IMG/VR virus record: IMGVR_UViG_2706794697_000014
Source: a virus
Lineage: Duplodnaviria; Heunggongvirae; Uroviricota; Caudoviricetes
DNA length: 45,417 nucleotides
Direction: 5' to 3' (one strand)
Under the pieces are notes generated by a model. The model had not been told where the DNA came from. It did no database searches and saw only the letters and a program-made list of their open reading frames with translations. The first letter of the stretch is position 1. Each line of letters begins with the position of its first letter. Both the position numbers and the translations under genes were made by a program. Positions 9,837 to 40,940 of this stretch are shown here, piece by piece.

Positions 9837-12800
9837 TCAACGAATACTGATGCCGGAAGCGGCTTTTTTGGTCACAATCACCGTACAGTCGGTGATATTG
9901 CCTGCCCCCTGATTGCCTTTCTGGAAAATCTTAAACTCCAGAGTGACGCTTCCCCTGCCACTCGGCATATCAATAACTGCACTGTAACTACCGGGAATGG
10001 CCCCTTTAGTTTCTCTGGATGCGATTAATACGCCGTTTTTGCGAACTTCAAAACCATAACCCGTGTATCGCGTGCCTCCTGGGTTATTTCCGCTCCCCGG
10101 ATCGTCATACGCTATACCGTTAAAAATAATGGGCGGAATAATAATCTGGCGGTCAAAGTTATGATCATCGCTGATGGTGACTGTAACCGTACCGTTTGGT
10201 GTTTCCGTGTTACCCCACGTACCGACTTTTTTCGGGAAGGCTTTTGATACAGCTTTAACGAAATCCCCTCTGACCTGGGTCGCCTCCAGCATGCCCTTAA
10301 TCGTACAGTTCTGGTTAATCGTGACATTGTTGAGCGTCCCTGAATTTGCATTCACATTACCGCTGATATCCGCATTTTTAGCGGTCAGCTTTCCGTCTGG
10401 TGTCAGGGAAAATGCCGGCGGATTTCCACCGCTGGTAATGGTGGGAGCCGTCAGGCGTTTCAGGAACACGTCATTCATGAATATCTGGTTGCCCTGCGCC
10501 ACAAACATCGGCGTTTCATTCCCGTTTGCCGGGTCAATAAACGCGATACGGTTAGCGGCAACCAGAAACTGGCTCAGTTTGCCTTCCTCCGTGTCCTCCA
10601 TGCTGAGGCCAATACCCGCGACATAATGTTTGCCGTCTTTGGTCTGCTCAATTTTGACGCCCCACATGGCATTCCACTTATCGTTGGCGTCCTTCCACTC
10701 TTTCGAAAACTCCTCCAGTCTGCTGGCGTTATCCTCCGTCAGGTCGACTTTTTCCAGCAGCTCCTGGCCGAGATGGGATTCGGTTATCTGGCCTTTGAAA
10801 AAATCCAGGTAACCTTCCGCATCATCGCTCGCCCGACCGACAGCCTCCACGAATGCTGATTTGCCGACGGTGTTCACACTGCGGATATAAAAGTAATAAT
10901 CATGGCCCGGCTTAATATTGATACTGGCGGCTATCCAGTACAGCCCCGTGCCAAGGTAGCGGGCTGTGGTTTCAACCTGCCTGATATCCGCAATCCGTTT
11001 TTCCGAGAACCAGAACTCAAACTGTACCGTCGGGTCATAAACCGCAAGATGCGGCGTGGCGGTTATCTGAAAATAGCCCGGCGTCAGCTCAATCCGCGAC
11101 GGCGCTGCCGGTGCGGCAATCCGGAACGATACCGACGCCGGATCGCCCTGCTGCCCCCACGCATTTACTGCCCGGACTGTCAGCCTGTAGTTCCCCAGAG
11201 CCAGTTGTGTGAAGCGGTAAGTGGTTTCCGTCGTCCGGGCCGTGCTGACCAGCCGCTCACGGCCGTCATCCGCTGCCACGGTCAGGCGAAGCAGGAAGCT
11301 CACGCCCTTCACCACCTTCGGCGTGTCCCAGCGGGCCAGCACCTGGTATTCCCCGCTGTCTGCGGTGACTTCTGCGGTCAGGTGCTGCACCGCTGGCGGC
11401 GTGACACCATTTACCGTGCCGCTCTGGTCGCCGTCAAAGTGCGCCCCGTTATCCACGATGGCCTCTTTTTCCGGTACATGCTGCACGGCAGTGATGGCAT
11501 ACGTGCCGTCGTCGTTCTCACGGATACTCACGCAGCGGAACAGGCGCTGGCGCAGCGTCGGCAGCTTCAGCCCCCATACGCTGTATTCAGCAACGCCGTC
11601 AGGAACACGGCTCACTTTCACCTTCACGCCGTCGGTGACGGACTGAACCTCCACGCTGACCGGACTCCCCTGCCCGTCAACCAGGCTTATCAGCGTGGTG
11701 CCGGAAGATGGCAGCGTGATTTCACGGTCGAGCGTCAGCGTCCGGGTCTGGCTGTTTACCGCCAGCACGCGCCCGCCGGTGCGGATACCGGCATAGTCAT
11801 CATCGCAGATTTCAATGACATCGCCCGGTACATGACGAAGCCCTTCAGCACCCACGCTGAAGTCCACGGTCTGCGTTTCCAGCAGTTCTGTTTTAATCAG
11901 CCACAGCCCGGCGCGGTGTGCCTGCCCCCGGCTGGTACAGCCAAAAGCATCCATCTTCGTGACGTTACGACCGTAACGGGCAATGGCCTGCGTGTCCTCC
12001 ACAAGCTCTGTCGCCGTCTCCCAGCCGTTATTCGGGTCAATCCAGTTCACCTCAACGGCATTATGGCGGTCCTTCAGGGCGCTGAANNNNNNNNNNNNNN
12101 NNNNNNNNNNNNNNNNNNNNNNNNNNNNNNNNNNNNNNNNNNNNNNNNNNNNNNNNNNNNNNNNNNNNNNNNNNNNNNNNNNNNNNNNNNNNNNNNNNNN
12201 NNNNNNNNNNNNNNNNNNNNNNNNNNNNNNNNNNNNNNNNNNNNNNNNNNNNNNNNNNNNNNNNNNNNNNNNNNNNNNNNNNNNNNNNNNNNNNNNNNNN
12301 NNNNNNNNNNNNNNNNNNNNNNNNNNNCGGCATCACCACATTACTGCGGTTATAGGTCCACACCTTATCCGACGGTCGGTCCTGCACGAACGTCAGCGTC
12401 TGCCCGTTCCATACCGGCATACAGCGCATCGCCGAGCAGAAATCACTGAGCACATCCCACGCCTTGCGCTGTGTGGTCAGGTACGCATTACAGGTGATGC
12501 GCGGCTCCGTGCCGCCAAAACCGTCCGGCACCGACTGATCGCAATGCTGGCCGATGACATACAGCGCCCATTTGTCCACATCCGCCGCACCAAGACGTTT
12601 CCCCATGCCGTAGCGCGGATGGGTCAGCATATCCCACAGACACCAGGCCATGTTGTTGCTGTATGCTGGCTTAAACGTTCCGTCCCAGATACCGCTGTAT
12701 TGCCGCGTCTGCGGGTTATAGCTCGACGGCACCTGCAGAATGCGCCCGCGCAGATGATAATTACGGCTCACCTGCTGGCTGCCGAACTGCTCCGAATCCA

Positions 12801-14818: not shown

Positions 14819-15299
14819 TTACTGCGAAAGTTTGTTAATGGAAAGGAAGCCGCCAAAGTTGCCGACGTTATTGCGAAACTTACAGCCGCTCAGGCATTTG
14901 CTGCATTTATCCTTCGTGATATCGGACGTCGGCTGATCATATTCATCCGCGACCGCCGGACCGTGATAACCGCACTCATCGCCGCGATAGGTCCAGGTGC
15001 AGGTGTTGGCCAGCATGATACGTCCCGGAAAAACGGCACCGTCCGTTTCCGTCGGCGTGGACAGTACAANNNNNNNNNNNNNNNNNNNNNNNNNNNNNNN
15101 NNNNNNNNNNNNNNNNNNNNNNNNNNNNNNNNNNCTGTCGCCCCTGCCAGGTGACCGGCTCACCTTTTTCGTTCTGCTCATTACAGAAAAAATAACGTTC
15201 TCCACCGACCTCTGTCAGATCGATTTCCCAGAGCACCACCTGGGCTGACTGAGTGAGGCGTGTCGTCTCATGATGTGTTTCCTGTGGAATATCCTGCAT
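14819..15299 (-). CDS. L: minor tail protein L (interrupted by N-run)
   Basis: N-terminal piece MQDIPQETHHETTRLTQSAQVVLWEIDLTEVGGERYFFCNEQNEKGEPVTWQGRQ and C-terminal piece ...CKFRNNVGNFGGFLSINKLSQ match lambda L; N-run 15070-15134 breaks the frame. Confidence 0.8.
15070..15134. other. assembly gap (65 N)
   Basis: run of n within L. Confidence 1.
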
Positions 15300-30127: not shown

Positions 30128-30583
30128 NNNNNNNNNNNNNNNNNNNNNNNNNNNNNNNNNNNNNNNNNNNNNNNNNNNNNNNNNNNNNNNNNNNNNNNNN
30201 NNNNNNNNNNNNNNNNNNNNNNNNNNNNNNNNNNNNNNNNNNNNNNNNNNNNNNNNNNNNNNNNNNNNNNNNNNNNNNNNNNNNNNNNNNNNNNNNNNNN
30301 NNNNNNNNNNNNNNNNNNNNNNNNNNNNNNNNNNNNNNNNNNNNNNNNNNNNNNNNNNNNNNNNNNNNNNNNNNNNNNNNNNNNNNNNNNNNNNNNNNNN
30401 NNNNNNNNNNNNNNNNNNNNNNNNNNNNNNNNNNNNNNNNNNNNNNNNNNNNNNNNNNNNNNNNNNNNNNNNNNNNNNNNNNNNNNNNNNNNNNNNNNNN
30501 NNNNNNNNNNNNNNNNNNNNNNNNNNNNNNNNNNNNNNNNNNNNNNNNNNNNNNNNNNNNNNNNNNNNNNNNNNNNNNNNNNN
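30128..30583. other. assembly gap (456 N)
   Basis: run of n between endolysin and holin 5' end. Confidence 1.
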
Positions 30584-35649: not shown

Positions 35650-36039
35650 TCAGGCGGCTGCACCCGCCGGTTTCTCATACTTACTGATAGTGATCTCGAC
35701 CTTCCCTTTCTGGATAACCGGTCCCCACTCCACCAGCATTCTTTTCACCTGGCTGTCGTCTTCCCACACCCCCGCGTGGGTCAGGGCGTCAAACAGCGCC
35801 TTGTTATAGTTGTCCAGATCGCGGATCCGGTTATCCGGAGGAAACAACACGATCTCCACTGAAGCAGGTGCCGACGTTGGTTTTGGCAGACGACGTAACT
35901 GCTCAACTATTGCTGCGCACGCCGCGCTCTGAAATTTTCGCCCCGCCGCGCTTATCAGGCTCTTACCAGCAAATGCCCCTTTGTTGGGGTGTCGCCAGTA
36001 CGTGTTCACGCTGGGCGGGAAAGGCAGGATCAGCTTCAT
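35650..36039 (-). CDS. rusA: Holliday junction resolvase RusA
   Basis: 129-aa product MKLILPFPPSVNTYWRH...DLDNYNKALFDALTHAGVWEDDSQV with conserved RusA acidic residues. Confidence 0.8.
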   Translation of the reverse strand: MKLILPFPPSVNTYWRHPNKGAFAGKSLISAAGRKFQSAACAAIVEQLRRLPKPTSAPASVEIVLFPPDNRIRDLDNYNKALFDALTHAGVWEDDSQVKRMLVEWGPVIQKGKVEITISKYEKPAGAAA

Positions 36040-36362
36040 ACTTTCAGGCCTCTCTCATGTAACCAGTGGGTTGCACGCAGCCTGGCGTTTTCCTCACCGG
36101 CAAGCAGTGAGCGGATAATCCCGACCGCCTCGCTGTCGTCGTCCTTCACCGCGGTATGAAGAGTGATACCCCGGGCCATGCCACGCTTTATCGTGATGAC
36201 GCCTTTTTTCTCCAGTGCGCGAAGATGTTCCACCGCTGCATTCACTGAACGGTATCCCAGCATGGTTGCCACCTCCTGATTGGTTGGCGGGAAGCCACGT
36301 TCTTTCTGGTAAGAAATCAGCATATCCAGCACCTGCTGCTGGCATTGAGTTAACGTCGTCAT
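36036..36362 (-). CDS. LexA N-terminal DNA-binding domain protein (no S24 peptidase domain)
   Basis: 108-aa product LTQCQQQVLDMLISYQKERGFPPTNQEVATMLGYRSVNAAVEHLRALEKKGVITI aligns by eye with the LexA winged-helix domain. Confidence 0.65.
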   Translation of the reverse strand: MTTLTQCQQQVLDMLISYQKERGFPPTNQEVATMLGYRSVNAAVEHLRALEKKGVITIKRGMARGITLHTAVKDDDSEAVGIIRSLLAGEENARLRATHWLHERGLKV

Positions 36363-37012
36363 GCCGCCATCTCCCTGACCAGTTTTTCCGCCTGCTGGCG
36401 AACCTGCGCCAGAAACGCCTCACCACATGCCTCAAGTTCATCGCGCCCGATGTAGCTGATTGCCGGTCCCTTCCAGGTCTTGTCGAAAACAGCAATAGCA
36501 CCAGCGAAGAAAGCGCCTGTCGGCACCTGCTTCTCGTCCTTCGGGATAAACCAGGCAGGCAGTTCAAAACCAATACGCCCGCGAATAAAAGCAATATGAT
36601 CTGCATCTTCCGGCCACCACACTTCGCTGGTGGCAGCTTTGATCAGGAAAACATAGCGTCCGCCCTTATCACGCATGGCACTGGCATGTTTCATGATGTA
36701 ACGCATGCCGGTGATGTATTGCCCTTCATGCTGACTGGCGCGGCTGTACGGGGGATTACCAAAGGCAGCACCTTTAAGCTCCGCAAGACGTTCAGACCAG
36801 TCATGCGCCAGCGCGTTGTCTTCCGCAGTGTAATAAGCGGCACATTTGGCGTTATCACCATCAGTGAACAGATCCAGAACAAACGGGCCAAACAGGGTGT
36901 TAATTCCCCAGAAAATGTTATCCGGCGTGCGCCACTGATCGCCCACTTCCTTCAGTTCATGGGCTGGTTTGTTCCGCAGCTCCACCAGCGCCTGGCAATA
37001 TTTATTACTCAT
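36359..37012 (-). CDS. phage Dam-family DNA N6-adenine methyltransferase
   Basis: NPPY motif (AAFGNPPYS) in about 217-aa product starting MSNKYCQALVEL. Confidence 0.75.
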   Translation of the reverse strand: MSNKYCQALVELRNKPAHELKEVGDQWRTPDNIFWGINTLFGPFVLDLFTDGDNAKCAAYYTAEDNALAHDWSERLAELKGAAFGNPPYSRASQHEGQYITGMRYIMKHASAMRDKGGRYVFLIKAATSEVWWPEDADHIAFIRGRIGFELPAWFIPKDEKQVPTGAFFAGAIAVFDKTWKGPAISYIGRDELEACGEAFLAQVRQQAEKLVREMAA

Positions 37013-37500
37013 TAAGCCCCCACGTAATTCCCTGACAGATACCACTCTTCACCCGATGCAGCGCGCTTGCTGCTTTTCCGTAAGCACCGCTCACGACGCG
37101 CCAGAAAATTGTTTCGTTCTGGCTGGGAGTGGCTTTCACGGAATGCCGCCATCCACACCGTTGCAGCACGACGGTATAAGCCCCTGGACTCCAGTTCTTC
37201 CGCCTGGCGGGTCAGGCACAAAATCACCCGGGGATCGTTAGTGCCGACATAGAAATTGCGCACAGGTCTGGTTTCACGAACTGGTTGTGGTTCCGGCTCC
37301 TGCGCTCTCTCAGTCAGGCGTGGGAAATGTCTGCGTGTATCTCCTTCATAACGGTGAGCCACACGCCCACTCTGACGTAACTTGCTTGCTGACTGCAGAA
37401 CGCGCTGCCGTGAGTAACCTGCAAAAGCATCCGCAATGTCTCCGGAAGTACACCCCGGATGGGCTTCAATGAATTTCTGAACTTCATTCAAAAGACTCAT
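37012..37500 (-). CDS. hypothetical early protein
   Basis: about 162-aa ORF MSLLNEVQKFIEAHPGCTSGDIADAF..., overlaps neighbours by 1-4 nt in operon-like fashion. Confidence 0.45.
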   Translation of the reverse strand: MSLLNEVQKFIEAHPGCTSGDIADAFAGYSRQRVLQSASKLRQSGRVAHRYEGDTRRHFPRLTERAQEPEPQPVRETRPVRNFYVGTNDPRVILCLTRQAEELESRGLYRRAATVWMAAFRESHSQPERNNFLARRERCLRKSSKRAASGEEWYLSGNYVGA

Positions 37501-37502
37501 GA

Positions 37503-38321
37503 TCACCCCCTGAATCCTGCCGGGATCTGGCTGTAGTCCACGTTGTCGTAACTGGCTTTGAAGTACGGGTCCTCGCGTCTGGCTGCAGATACCGCAGGAA
37601 CTTCCCAGAATTCTTCGAAATGACGATCCGGACCAAAGAACGTGACAGCCTGTTTCACAAATTGTGTGCCGCTGTTACCCATCGCAGATACCCATCCCGC
37701 GTAGCGTTTCACACCTTCCAGCATGGTTTCGGGGTTTACTCCCTCATTCAAACGGGCTTTCCAGGCTTTGAAGGCTGCAGATTTTGAATTGCCACCAGCA
37801 CGTTTGGGATATGCCAGCCATGCCTGCTCAAACTCCGGAGAGTATTCCGGTCGGTTTGAACGAACTCGCACGGACTCATCAACTGATGCACCAACAGCTA
37901 TTGGTTCATTGACTGGTTCTTTGACTGGTTCAAAAGAGTGACTGGTTCTGGGTGAATCTCCTGCACTACCCCCTGGTGCAACTCCTGCACTACCTGGTGA
38001 ATTTGCTGCACCAGATAGTGAATTATTTGCACTACCCCCTAGTGAATCTCCTGCACCATCCAGATGAAGGAGATAGATATTACTTGAGTTACCTTTTTCA
38101 CCTTTCCGGGTGACTTTTTTTACCAGCCCGGACTCACAAAGGGCCGCAATATGATTCATCACAGAACGTTTGCTAATTTCGCACTGGTCAGCAATATGCT
38201 GGTAGCTGGGCCAGCACTCACCCTGATCGCTGGCATTATCAGCCAGCTTGATCAGAACCAGTTTTCGCAATGGATTACCCACTCGAATTTTCATCGCTTT
38301 AACCATCAGCTCCATACTCAT
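37503..38321 (-). CDS. replication initiation-like HTH protein containing internal iterons
   Basis: N-terminal HTH (LADNASDQGECWPSYQHIADQCEISKRSVMNHIAAL), low-complexity G/S/A/P linker encoded by tandem DNA repeats. Confidence 0.55.
   Translation of the reverse strand: MSMELMVKAMKIRVGNPLRKLVLIKLADNASDQGECWPSYQHIADQCEISKRSVMNHIAALCESGLVKKVTRKGEKGNSSNIYLLHLDGAGDSLGGSANNSLSGAANSPGSAGVAPGGSAGDSPRTSHSFEPVKEPVNEPIAVGASVDESVRVRSNRPEYSPEFEQAWLAYPKRAGGNSKSAAFKAWKARLNEGVNPETMLEGVKRYAGWVSAMGNSGTQFVKQAVTFFGPDRHFEEFWEVPAVSAARREDPYFKASYDNVDYSQIPAGFRG
37901..38065. repeat. tandem direct repeats (putative origin iterons) inside replication gene
   Basis: TGACTGGTTC x3 (37910, 37922, 37939) followed by five imperfect 21-24-bp repeats of GGTGAATCTCCTGCACTACC type. 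Confidence 0.45.
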
Positions 38322-38554
38322 GCTGCACCTCCGAGATGCTTCATGTTTTTTCCGGAGCGAAAGGCTATAAGCGGCATACTGACGCGGTAATTACGGCCCA
38401 GCGGTTCACAAATCACCTTCTGGCATTCACGGTCAACCAGGCTAACACGTAGAACATGCCCTGCAGGCGTGGTGTACCACTGCCCAACTGTAGGAATTGA
38501 TATTTTTTTACGCTGAAGCAAACGGCAAATATTGAGGATCAACGGATTAAGCAT
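38318..38554 (-). CDS. hypothetical small protein
   Basis: 78-aa ORF overlapping neighbours by 4-8 nt. Confidence 0.35.
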   Translation of the reverse strand: MLNPLILNICRLLQRKKISIPTVGQWYTTPAGHVLRVSLVDRECQKVICEPLGRNYRVSMPLIAFRSGKNMKHLGGAA

Positions 38555-39383
38555 GACGATGCCCTCCGCTGATATTCAGGAGACGGTGAATATGAAAATT
38601 AGCCTTATCCGCCAGACGAATACGTTCAGCTTGCAAGTTAAGAAGGGTTTCTACCAGAACCTGATGTGCCTGCGGATCCGAAAGAGTTACCTTGCGCAGA
38701 GCACGTAGTGCAGTTGTTACATAACTGAGTTTATGTAAGTCTTCATCATTCAGACGAGTGAGGGCTGGGACAGTAGCCATGATGGCAGCCTCCTTGATCG
38801 GTGAAATACTTCCACCACCGGAAACGCCAATTTCGCTGGTGGTGAACTGAACGGGGTTGGCGTAACCGGTGATCAAGGAAACCGGCGCATCTTTCGATGC
38901 CCCCGCCCAGCCCACCATAACTTTGATGTGAGCAAATGCGGACGATAAAAAAGACGCTGGCGCGTCATATATCGCCTTGATCAATTCCAGGACGCCAATC
39001 CCGGCACCCGCTTTATAAGGTGCCTGAACAGTGTAACGTCCCGGAATGGCAGAATCAATGTGCTGGTGGTCCTTCACACTCAACAAAATCACGCCTGAAT
39101 TTCCACAAAGGACTAAAGCACTCATGCGGGTAGTCTTTGCGAAGATAGATAACGCGCTGTGTTTCTGGCTCCCAACGAATAACATGAACATAAAGTCCTC
39201 TTCCGTCACGAAACCAGCGGTTAAGTTCCTGCACAACTCGCCCCCCACAGTCAGGTAAAGTTCTCTGTGGTTACTTACAGCCAGGTGATTTGGTAATCTG
39301 CATTCATGCCGTAACAACAGGTGTTCAGCGACGCTGACCACCAGCTGTTGCGACAAACGGTTATTTGCCGTTAAACTGTTCAT
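38547..39383 (-). CDS. hypothetical early protein
   Basis: 278-aa ORF in early-right operon; no motif I can name. Confidence 0.45.
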   Translation of the reverse strand: MNSLTANNRLSQQLVVSVAEHLLLRHECRLPNHLAVSNHRELYLTVGGELCRNLTAGFVTEEDFMFMLFVGSQKHSALSIFAKTTRMSALVLCGNSGVILLSVKDHQHIDSAIPGRYTVQAPYKAGAGIGVLELIKAIYDAPASFLSSAFAHIKVMVGWAGASKDAPVSLITGYANPVQFTTSEIGVSGGGSISPIKEAAIMATVPALTRLNDEDLHKLSYVTTALRALRKVTLSDPQAHQVLVETLLNLQAERIRLADKANFHIHRLLNISGGHRHA

Positions 39384-39943
39384 GCGTTAGTTTCTCCACA
39401 GACACAAAACGCCACGACGCCCGGAGCTGCACACTCGCGGGCGTCACTCTTTTCTGGAGCGCAAAAGATTTTGTAGACCAGTGCTGCATGCTCCTGGAGC
39501 TTCGAAATTGACAGATACAACTCATCATTAATTGCTGTCTGCTCGTGTGGCTCCACTACCCCATCTTCGATTGCCGAACGAATCTGCTTTGAGTAACTCC
39601 CGATCTGTTCGATGACTTCCAGCAGGCGCTGGTTTATATCGGCGTTCTCTACTTCCTCAATTTCAGGAAGCGATACAAACACCCCACCAGCAGACTGTGC
39701 GACAGCATCCGCAATGTAGTGAGTGCCAGCCGCGCGCTGTAAAATCATTGCCCATCCCAGCGGGAAAATCTGATCGCCATCTGCACGAAGGCGGTTGAAT
39801 AAAGCGTTCTCTGTTACATCCAGCCACTCAGCAGCTTCAGCGTAACCCCCCGGCAACGCCGCGATAGTTTTTCTGACAGCTTTCACGTACCACTCAGGCT
39901 GTTTTTCTACTTTCCAGTGATGCTTACCCACGGTTAGCCTCAT
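39380..39943 (-). CDS. putative early regulatory protein (CII/CP76-like position)
   Basis: 187-aa ORF immediately downstream of cro; weak resemblance to CP76-type CII regulators. Confidence 0.4.
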   Translation of the reverse strand: MRLTVGKHHWKVEKQPEWYVKAVRKTIAALPGGYAEAAEWLDVTENALFNRLRADGDQIFPLGWAMILQRAAGTHYIADAVAQSAGGVFVSLPEIEEVENADINQRLLEVIEQIGSYSKQIRSAIEDGVVEPHEQTAINDELYLSISKLQEHAALVYKIFCAPEKSDARECAAPGVVAFCVCGETNA

Positions 39944-39974
39944 CGTTCTGTGGTTAAAAATTGAAGGTGTTCTG

Positions 39975-40175
39975 TTAATCTTTCGGATAGATATCCGGTC
40001 TTAAGTCAGATTTCGTAATTGCACCTGACGTGCATTGCTCAAGTTTTTTAGCCAGCACAAAACTGGCTTTTTTATAACCATTGAAAACCAGCCGTAAGTA
40101 GCCTGGTGTTGAGCCAACTTTTCCGGCCAACTCACCCTGCTGTTCTTTGGTTAAAGAGTCCCAATACGCTTTCAT
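39975..40175 (-). CDS. cro: Cro-like HTH repressor
   Basis: 66-aa product MKAYWDSLTKEQQGELAGKVGSTPGYLRLVFNGYKKASFVLAKKLEQ...; divergent from cI across operator region. Confidence 0.7.
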   Translation of the reverse strand: MKAYWDSLTKEQQGELAGKVGSTPGYLRLVFNGYKKASFVLAKKLEQCTSGAITKSDLRPDIYPKD

Positions 40176-40179
40176 ACAA

Positions 40180-40248
40180 TATGTACCTCCGGTATACATA
40201 TTACATGATTGAGATGAACCTTCAAGATACTTGTACCTTATCGGTACA
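40180..40248. promoter_or_regulatory. OR-like operator region with two 19-bp palindromic sites
   Basis: ATGTACC-TCCGG-TATACAT (40180-40198) and perfect TTGTACC-TTATC-GGTACAA (40230-40248) between cro and cI. Confidence 0.5.
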
Positions 40249-40265
40249 AAGGTTTTAATTTCTTT

Positions 40266-40940
40266 ATGAAAACAGTCCATGACATCCGGCGGTCTAACGC
40301 CAGAAAACTGAGAGATGGTGTTGGCGGGAATTCTTCCTTTGCCACCATGATTGATCGCGAGCCAACCCAGACCAGCAGGTTTATGGGAGATGGTGCAACT
40401 AAAAATATCGGTGACAGCATGGCACGGCACATCGAAAAATGTTTCGACCTGCCTGTCGGATGGCTTGATCAAGAACACCAGACAACGAACATCACAAAAA
40501 AACCTGACGTTTCAATCACTAACAAACAAATAACGTTAGTCCCTGTCATATCATGGGTACAGGCCGGAGCATGGAAAGAAGTTGGCTATTCTGAGGTTGA
40601 TTTGAGCACAGCAGAAACTTATCCCTGCCCTGTACCCTGTGGCGAAATGACTTATATCTTGCGGGTGATTGGTGATTCAATGATTGATGAGTACCGCCCG
40701 GGAGACATGATTTTTGTTGATCCTGAAGTCCCTGCCTGCCACGGTGACGACGTTATTGCATTGATGCACGATACAGGCGAAACCACCTTCAAGCGGTTGA
40801 TAGAAGATGGAACACAGCGTTATCTCAAAGCATTAAACCCAAACTGGCCTGAGCCTTACATTAAGATTAACGGTAATTGCTCTATAATTGGTACAGTGAT
40901 TTTCTCAGGAAAACCAAGAAGATACATAATAAAGGCCTAA
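40266..40940 (+). CDS. cI: CI-like repressor (S24 LexA-type peptidase family)
   Basis: C-terminal S24 domain (VIGDSMIDEYRPGDMIFVD, TFKRL) preceded by DNA-binding N-terminus. Confidence 0.8.
   Translation: MKTVHDIRRSNARKLRDGVGGNSSFATMIDREPTQTSRFMGDGATKNIGDSMARHIEKCFDLPVGWLDQEHQTTNITKKPDVSITNKQITLVPVISWVQAGAWKEVGYSEVDLSTAETYPCPVPCGEMTYILRVIGDSMIDEYRPGDMIFVDPEVPACHGDDVIALMHDTGETTFKRLIEDGTQRYLKALNPNWPEPYIKINGNCSIIGTVIFSGKPRRYIIKA

Follow-up and report, generated by a model that had tools for sequence, protein, structure and literature searches.

Phage lambda (O/ori), P22 (gene 18), and phage L (gene 18) carry the replication origin inside the initiator gene, in the stretch that encodes the linker joining an N-terminal DNA-binding domain to a C-terminal recruitment domain (PMC8022706; PMC5043065). 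Origins of the lambda type comprise four to five dyad-symmetric repeats of ~20 bp at ~two-turn spacing, with an opening region next to them in the direction of transcription, and their iterons form one specificity module with the initiator N-terminal domain (N-domain). Much of this arrangement recurs in a 45,417-nucleotide stretch of Caudoviricetes DNA (IMG/VR record IMGVR_UViG_2706794697_000014, hereafter the window), where two sets of direct repeats lie inside a 272-amino-acid replication initiator gene on the minus strand. A first-pass annotation of this DNA had proposed a lambda-like origin within the replication gene, on the precedent of the lambda ori iterons, which lie within O; four iterons are indeed annotated inside gene O in NC_001416, with an A+T-rich tract next to them. 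For the longer (21–24 bp) units of the window, the proposal was supported by every computational test run, because these units are independent of reading frame, dyad symmetric, and about two turns apart, and because they covary and travel with the N-domain. Based on these comparisons, the region very probably serves as the origin of replication in an SfV/mEp460-type lambdoid prophage, with the 21–24 bp units as initiator sites. In the present family, a short block of invariant sequence takes the position of lambda's A+T-rich tract.

Both repeat sets are present as had been described. The sequence TGACTGGTTC occurs three times within 40 bp (exact copies at 37910–37919, 37922–37931, and 37939–37948; spacing of 12 and 17 bp), and no other exact copy was found in the window. 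Next to these are five imperfect 21–24 bp repeats, which start at 37952, 37976, 37997, 38018, and 38042 (spacing of 24, 21, 21, and 24 bp); tandem repeat finder reported them with a period of 24 and 4.6 copies (score 77). The low-complexity linker said to be encoded on the minus strand corresponds to residues 89–140 (GAGDSLGGSANNSLSGAANSPGSAGVAPGGSAGDSPRTSHSFEPVKEPVNEP), which are rich in Gly, Ser, Ala, and Pro and are disordered in an AlphaFold2 model. On the coding strand, the repeat tract reads GAGDSLGGSANNSLSGAANSPGSAGVAPGGSAGDSP-RTSHSFEPVKEPVNEP, and the five 21–24 bp units encode residues 89–124, between the winged helix and the C-terminal domain (residue 158 onward). The pattern GTGMA-N5-TKCAC matches the five units and nothing else in the window; shuffles give an expectation of 0.32 matches, and none of 100 reached five (a post hoc test, as the pattern was derived from the units themselves). 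No further iteron clusters were found elsewhere in the 45 kb window.

The units were compared across 80 loci, one per species, from sources that include Enterobacterales, Pseudomonas, Shewanella, Marinomonas, Aeromonas, Xenorhabdus, and Photobacterium (relatives at 39%–78% identity; 81 genes with that of the window). Tandem units directly follow the winged helix in nearly all 80 homologs, numbering two to seven and mostly four or five. Their spacing is 21–24 bp in all but four of the 245 intervals in the 81 genes; 69 of the 245 spacings are not divisible by three, and in 37 of the 81 genes the copies of one DNA unit fall in two or three reading frames. In Pseudomonas, for example, GTGCAGCAGATTCAC is read as GAADSL, VVQQIH, or SAAGSP (in longer form GAADSLG, VVQQIHQG, and SAAGSPP). 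A peptide repeat cannot be what is kept, because the same unit is read in several frames. At the DNA level, the family units are extended palindromes of the form (C)CCCTAGTGmA-N5-TkCACTAGGG(G), with spacers A-GGGGG-T or the complement. The last unit directly adjoins the invariant block in 81 of 81 genes (anchored alignment), and the last spacing is 24 bp in all 11 genes for which spacings were listed.

These data bear on the simplest alternative, in which the repeats would be a mere slippage-prone low-complexity coding tract that supplies a flexible peptide linker and has no function as DNA. The tract does encode a Gly/Ser/Ala/Pro-rich disordered linker, and near-identical E. coli relatives differ in repeat number alone (proteins of 242–302 amino acids), as replication slippage predicts. 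However, units at 22 or 23 bp spacing fall in different reading frames (the 37 of 81 genes above), units are dyad symmetric and class-consistent inside each gene, and the silent sites of the 10-mer block are invariant while its amino acids vary. The frame and codon analyses already contradict this explanation, which we regard as highly improbable; as judged from these alignments, both repeat sets are under selection as DNA and not as peptide.

The half-site sequence varies by lineage and is uniform among the copies inside one gene. Half-sites GTGCA/GTGAA occur with the helix/wing sequence S(K/R)RSVM(N/S)HI...KGNSSN.Y, GTGAC with SKRSVMRHID, GGGGC with the helix/wing (G/S/A)RSTVK.HIRELE...RRKGELNQSN.F, and TGCCG with the helix/wing CSKSAVR.HI...GNHNGKGNASNVY, while TGTAGGC is paired with DRSTVRKHIKQLE. 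The residues that covary with iteron class are those in the modelled DNA-reading helix and wing (recognition helix, residues 51–64, and wing, residues 67–85, in the AlphaFold2 model of the window initiator). We interpret the 21–24 bp units as putative initiator-binding iterons, and the covariation indicates that iterons and initiator N-domain are one specificity module.

Past the last iteron, a motif-anchored alignment gives, in every gene, the dinucleotide CC followed by AGAAyCAGTmACyyTyyTGAAyCAGTCAnnGAACC, a block that contains two universal copies of GAACCAGTCA (the reverse-strand form of TGACTGGTTC) 17 bp apart; close relatives have two to four copies. The codons of the block are fixed: Arg is AGA in 74 of 74 genes (although six codons are possible), Ser is AGT in 78/78, His CAC in 66/66, and the other Ser TCT in 72/72, while GAA is used for the first Glu in 76/76 and for the second in 73/73; for Pro, CCA accounts for 94%, and for Val, GTC accounts for 96%. 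N-domain residues of equal conservation use two to six codons (top codon 26%–88%, codon entropy 0.5–2.5 bits), and fixed codon columns number eight of nine in the block versus none of 57 in this control (Fisher P = 1.6e-9; 78–79 homologs). The changes that do occur within the block are nearly all non-synonymous (T/I at 54:25, H/N, F/S/L/P, and P/S), and the codon phase differs between the two universal GAACCAGTCA copies (xTSH and EPVx). Hence, it is as nucleotides that the block is selected, and not as a disordered peptide, because silent sites are fixed, amino acids vary, and codon phases differ.

The block sequence is the same in every iteron class, and the variable recognition helix therefore cannot read it. 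The first-pass annotation had taken both repeat sets as iterons; this stands for the 21–24 bp units and not for the TGACTGGTTC copies, which are invariant in all iteron classes and, on the evidence of the alignments, are a family-wide invariant element with a different role rather than initiator-specific iterons. Two scans of viral contigs each returned more than 120 block loci, all inside genes of this initiator family. Moreover, the sole conserved helix-stability minimum within ±450 bp falls on the block (mean z 1.4–1.7, n = 81 loci).

These features suggest that the block is a universal origin element, for which DNA opening appears the most likely role, held here with a confidence at or slightly short of even. 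As its sequence, beyond its composition, is fixed, the block is probably contacted specifically. Put tentatively in a more specific form, GAAYCAGTMA-C(Y)6-GAAYCAGTMA may be a sequence-specific universal opening or helicase-entry element in a very large family of phage initiators from Gammaproteobacteria, degenerate in those of Betaproteobacteria, and could be recognized as double- or single-stranded DNA by an invariant winged-helix surface or a conserved host factor. In the same tentative proposal, the N-domain, iterons, and block would together make up a portable "origin cassette," to which phages attach exchangeable domains that adapt it to the host.

A block that is sequence-invariant rather than just AT-rich would also fit roles other than that of the opening region, namely (a) a site for a conserved host or phage factor, (b) a conserved junction for recombination between N-terminal and C-terminal modules, or (c) a messenger RNA signal, such as a pause at rare codons (AGA, AGT) during which the nascent N-domain could bind in cis. 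For the first of these, no consensus match to DnaA, integration host factor (IHF), or sigma-70 promoter sites was found. Module crossovers do fall exactly at the block, yet recombination alone cannot hold 28 bp invariant with flanks saturated at synonymous sites. The pause is in keeping with a block that starts with AGA, an Arg codon that is rare in E. coli and Pseudomonas and is used in all 74 genes; against it, the block is a direct DNA repeat with copies in different codon phases, which argues for recognition as DNA. We consider it rather unlikely that one of these roles replaces DNA opening. Two further readings of the sequence were rejected. TTGACT in the 10-mers was considered as part of a sigma-70 promoter, but no sigma-70-like site was found in 37000–40400, and there is no plausible -10 hexamer. 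A BoxA-like reading of CACTCTTTT was discarded, given that the pyrimidine run varies among relatives (CTCTTCT, CTCTCTT, and CCTTTCT).

Some genes in the family depart from the usual layout. The E. coli variants P0042 (242 amino acids) and P0028 (250 amino acids, on 64 contigs) have only one to two iterons, and variant P0041 (247 amino acids) is without the last iteron and without the entire 10-mer block; such variants may represent either minimal origins or prophages defective in replication. Iteron spacing is often 22–23 bp, so that gain or loss of one unit frameshifts the initiator. In two genome loci (L031 and L035) and one viral contig (L157), the N-domain frame differs from that of the block and C-terminal domain, with the block read as PEPVTLLNQSKNQS; these could be pseudogenes, sequencing errors, or switch-like inactivation.

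Past one and the same combination of N-domain, iterons, and block, at least seven unrelated C-terminal domain families are found. One family shows homology to the lambda O C-domain (37% identity over 140 amino acids, E = 3e-22, with the alignment beginning at the block) and is fused to the HTH_36 N-domain, iterons, and block in the genome loci L016, L043, and L047; another is Phg_2220_C. As a lambda-O C-domain sits directly past the same cassette, the cassette is equivalent in position to ori-lambda. Conversely, the window-type C-terminal domain is seen with several iteron classes in isolate genomes. The N-domain and iterons thus assort independently of the C-terminal domain, and the cassette of N-domain, iterons, and block is modular as far as these genes indicate. 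In a Pasteurella relative (L243), four perfect 21-bp units and the block are followed by a lambda-P-like gene ("replication protein P"). The lambda-O-type fusions and this P gene indicate that the origin-recognition and loader-recruiting halves have been exchanged between otherwise unrelated initiator families. More distant relatives, Pasteurella among them, retain this layout: Arsenophonus has 23-bp units and a block spacing of 14 bp, with the first copy in another frame, and Massilia, a betaproteobacterium, has 17–22 bp units and a degenerate form of the block. In two contigs from E. coli metagenomes (L204 and L205), the sequence downstream of AGAACCAGTCAC matches the window at ~100% identity and the sequence upstream of it is unrelated; both have very low coverage and were for that reason given less weight as evidence of recombination at the block.

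The module is also carried by circular "plasmid" records of ~38–54 kb in PLSDB (e.g., NZ_CP148393.1, locus L240). An E. coli record of 44,611 bp is 100% identical in N-domain and linker and has no plasmid replicon type assigned; other hosts are Salmonella, Klebsiella, Microbulbifer, Shewanella, Pasteurella, Edwardsiella, and many Arsenophonus strains. These circular records look like phage genomes captured as episomes.

The identification of the gene itself comes from family assignment (Table 1). The 272-amino-acid open reading frame (ORF) matches Pfam HTH_36 at residues 17–67 (1.8e-11, 44.1 bits, cut-off 25) and PHROG 270, "replication initiation protein," at residues 3–271 (2.4e-88), matches by which it is a replication initiator. 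Pfam DnaD_N similarity is weak (24.3 bits, under the cut-off of 27). The C-terminal part matches PHROG 1701 ("DnaD-like helicase loader") and PHROG 9327 ("primosomal protein"), and AlphaFold2 models a helical domain at residues 160–240. Neither NCBIfam nor Pfam has a model for the C-terminal domain, and Foldseek against PDB likewise gives no assignment; the domain is presumably an adaptor to the host replication machinery. A PDB sequence search with the initiator returned nothing significant, and Foldseek against PDB returned generic winged-helix matches only (E > 0.01; e.g., the DnaD N-domain 2v79 at E = 0.04), which include the centromere-binding winged-helix proteins TubR and AspA.

Table 1. 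Initiator gene, encoded domains, and repeat elements in the window
Feature	Position	Strand	Basis
Replication initiator gene, 272 amino acids, SfV orf39/mEp460_043 type	37503..38321	-	ORF, Pfam, PHROG, DNA identity
N-terminal winged-helix DNA-binding domain, residues 1–88	38058..38321	-	AlphaFold2 predicted local distance difference test (pLDDT) 72–93, H-H-H-H-E-E topology
Disordered linker, residues 89–157, overlapping the putative origin elements	37851..38057	-	AlphaFold2 pLDDT <50 for residues 91–157
C-terminal helical domain, residues 158–272	37506..37850	-	PHROG 1701/9327 matches
Putative iteron core 1 (first in gene orientation), GTGCAGGAGATTCAC on minus strand	38042..38056	.	
Putative iteron core 2, GTGCAAATAATTCAC on minus strand	38018..38032	.	
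Putative iteron core 3, GTGCAGCAAATTCAC on minus strand	37997..38011	.	
Putative iteron core 4, GTGCAGGAGTTGCAC on minus strand	37976..37990	.	
Putative iteron core 5 (last), GTGCAGGAGATTCAC on minus strand; dinucleotide CC joins the core to the invariant block	37952..37966	.	
Family-invariant block AGAACCAGTCACTCTTTTGAACCAGTCA, two GAACCAGTCA copies 17 bp apart (= TGACTGGTTC at 37939–48 and 37922–31)	37922..37949	-	
Third GAACCAGTCA copy, 12 bp past the second; lineage-variable	37910..37919	-	

Around the repeats, 1 kb of the window is 98%–100% identical to the DNA of SfV (orf39, "replication protein"), mEp460, Ayreon, and 2H10, and to that of many Stx2a, Stx2c, and Stx2k phages and E. coli strain A14. 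The gene shares 98.6% DNA identity with SfV orf39. Of 5,426 complete E. coli genomes, 881 contain at least 80% of the 1 kb query. Neither the SfV (GenBank U82619) nor the mEp460 (JQ182728) record annotates an origin or repeat feature. The operon runs from an S24 repressor gene (40266–40940, plus strand) through a cro-like region, a CII-like gene (39380–39943), an Ash-family gene, and a small ORF to the initiator, with genes for PerC/yfdN, a Dam methylase, a LexA-DNA-binding-domain protein, and RusA on its 3' side; the initiator thus occupies the O-gene position in a lambdoid early-right operon. No helicase-loader gene (P, DnaC-like, or DnaB-like) was found directly downstream of the initiator among the neighbors annotated by Pfam and PHROG.

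This genomic context also helps to weigh a second alternative, in which the units bind their own winged helix for autoregulation (as a transcriptional roadblock) or for partition (as a centromere-like array). Dyad-symmetric sites are typical of dimeric repressor operators, and both the Foldseek matches to TubR and AspA and the circular episomal records that carry the module would suit this alternative. However, the gene stands in the O-gene position, some family members have a lambda-O C-domain or a P-like loader gene next to them, the PHROG families are named initiators, and four to five two-turn-phased sites beside an invariant low-stability block constitute the anatomy of an origin. Nor does a partner ATPase gene adjoin the initiator. 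We therefore hold that binding for either purpose is unlikely.

For the origin, we infer from the comparisons above a sequence of binding, DNA opening, and helicase loading. Winged-helix dimers of the initiator N-domain would bind the five dyad-symmetric GTGMA-N5-TKCAC sites, and the 21–24 bp (~two turns) spacing would place these dimers on roughly one face of the helix, giving a complex like the lambda O-some. Stress from this complex may then open the adjoining 28–45 bp block, in which GAACCAGTCA direct repeats are parted by a pyrimidine run. The interchangeable C-terminal domain would bring in the host helicase and primosome, a role proposed for it because no P-like or DnaC-like gene adjoins the initiator. 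Early-right operon transcription would pass through the site, as in lambda.

Several observations weigh against this reading. The model requires helicase recruitment without a loader gene. The window block is just mildly AT-rich (61% AT, z about 1), and the most AT-rich stretch (38060–38100, 66% AT) lies on the other side of the iterons and is unconserved in relatives; a strong AT-rich unwinding element was looked for in the window, and none was found. The origin elements (37910–38056) contain neither a DnaA box nor an IHF site nor a GATC cluster. Physical linkage and shared ancestry would by themselves produce part of the covariation of iteron class with the N-domain. Finally, the clearest recombinants (L204 and L205) are low-coverage metagenome contigs and may be assembly chimeras.

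Other sequences near the repeats and the initiator were also recorded. No consensus DnaA box was found in 37300–38600, where the best candidate is a DnaA-box-like 9-mer with one mismatch (TTTTTCACC) at 38094, ~40 bp beyond iteron 1. A terminator-like hairpin and T run (TCACCTTTCCGGGTGA CTTTTTTTAC) occupies 38098–38113 on the plus strand, antisense to the initiator and ~40 bp from the first iteron, in the local AT-rich maximum at 38060–38100. Both the hairpin and the 9-mer are absent from the family alignment, as this wing-coding stretch is not conserved in relatives. Four-base start/stop overlaps join the initiator to its neighbors on both sides (ATGA at 38318–38321 with the small upstream ORF, which belongs to PHROG 1153 of unknown function, and 37503–37506 with the PerC/yfdN gene), and this suggests translational coupling along the operon. 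Downstream, 36036–37506 encodes a yfdN-like activator of the PerC family, a phage Dam methylase, and a LexA-DNA-binding-domain-only protein, a set shared with SfV and mEp460. About half of all complete E. coli genomes (2,720 of 5,426) contain the yfdN end of the query, often beside another initiator N-terminus. Runs of N (masked or unresolved) occur at 12087–12327, 15070–15134, and 30128–30583, in the structural/late region of the prophage.

The origin call itself is ordinary, since the SfV gene has been called a replication protein since its deposit and iteron prediction in such genes is routine. Full-text literature searches gave no prior description of the window repeats and yielded only general background and irrelevant primer or miRNA matches, although a mention in the SfV genome paper (J Bacteriol 2002) is possible. 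Four features are apparently undescribed in the searchable literature: a 28-bp block, common to the whole family, whose silent sites are frozen; iteron spacing in other than multiples of three; an explicit match of recognition helix and wing to iteron half-site; and reuse of the cassette with many C-terminal domains. The replication module is common, with carriers that include SfV, mEp460, and many toxin-converting phages of the Stx2a, Stx2c, and Stx2k types; in Stx-converting phages, phage replication drives toxin gene dosage. The comparative data amount to a candidate specificity code in which recognition helix and wing are paired with the iteron half-site. Frozen at silent sites, the 28-bp element shows with unusual clarity how a gene and a cis-acting site can occupy the same bases. 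It could show what opens DNA or loads helicase in initiators without an AAA+ module, and it offers a simple DNA signature for finding origins in thousands of uncharacterized prophages.

Compared with known systems, the window initiator departs from lambda O in several respects. Its N-domain is HTH_36 with weak DnaD_N similarity, and its iteron sequence is different; BLASTP of the window protein against lambda O gave nothing significant, and its Pfam match is HTH_36 and not the lambda-O family, so that homology does not place it among the lambda O proteins. Where lambda has a 40-bp A+T-rich purine-asymmetric tract, the present family has an invariant pair or triple of GAACCAGTCA 10-mers, and, unlike in lambda, no P-like loader gene follows the window initiator. 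Among Gram-positive phages, the replisome organizers of SPP1 (G38P/oriL) and of the lactococcal phages TP901-1 and Tuc2009 are winged-helix, DnaD-N-like proteins that bind repeats inside their own gene; their hosts, repeat sequences, and C-terminal partners are unlike those of the window, and there is no significant sequence relationship. The iteron plasmid systems RK2 oriV/TrfA, F/RepE, and pPS10/RepA likewise have an array of sites beside an opening region with short specific direct repeats. Plasmid iterons are bound by Rep monomers of the WH1-WH2 fold, usually alongside DnaA boxes. They are direct repeats outside the rep gene, whereas the sites here are palindromic and inside the gene, with no DnaA box within the origin elements. 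In RK2, the initiator contacts opening-region repeats as single-stranded DNA (reviewed in PMC5043065), and the specific 13-mers of oriC and RK2 oriV, together with the capture of single-stranded DNA by initiators, provide an analogy for the block (PMC5043065). For a sequence-specific repeat block beside iterons, iteron plasmids thus appear to be the best analogy.

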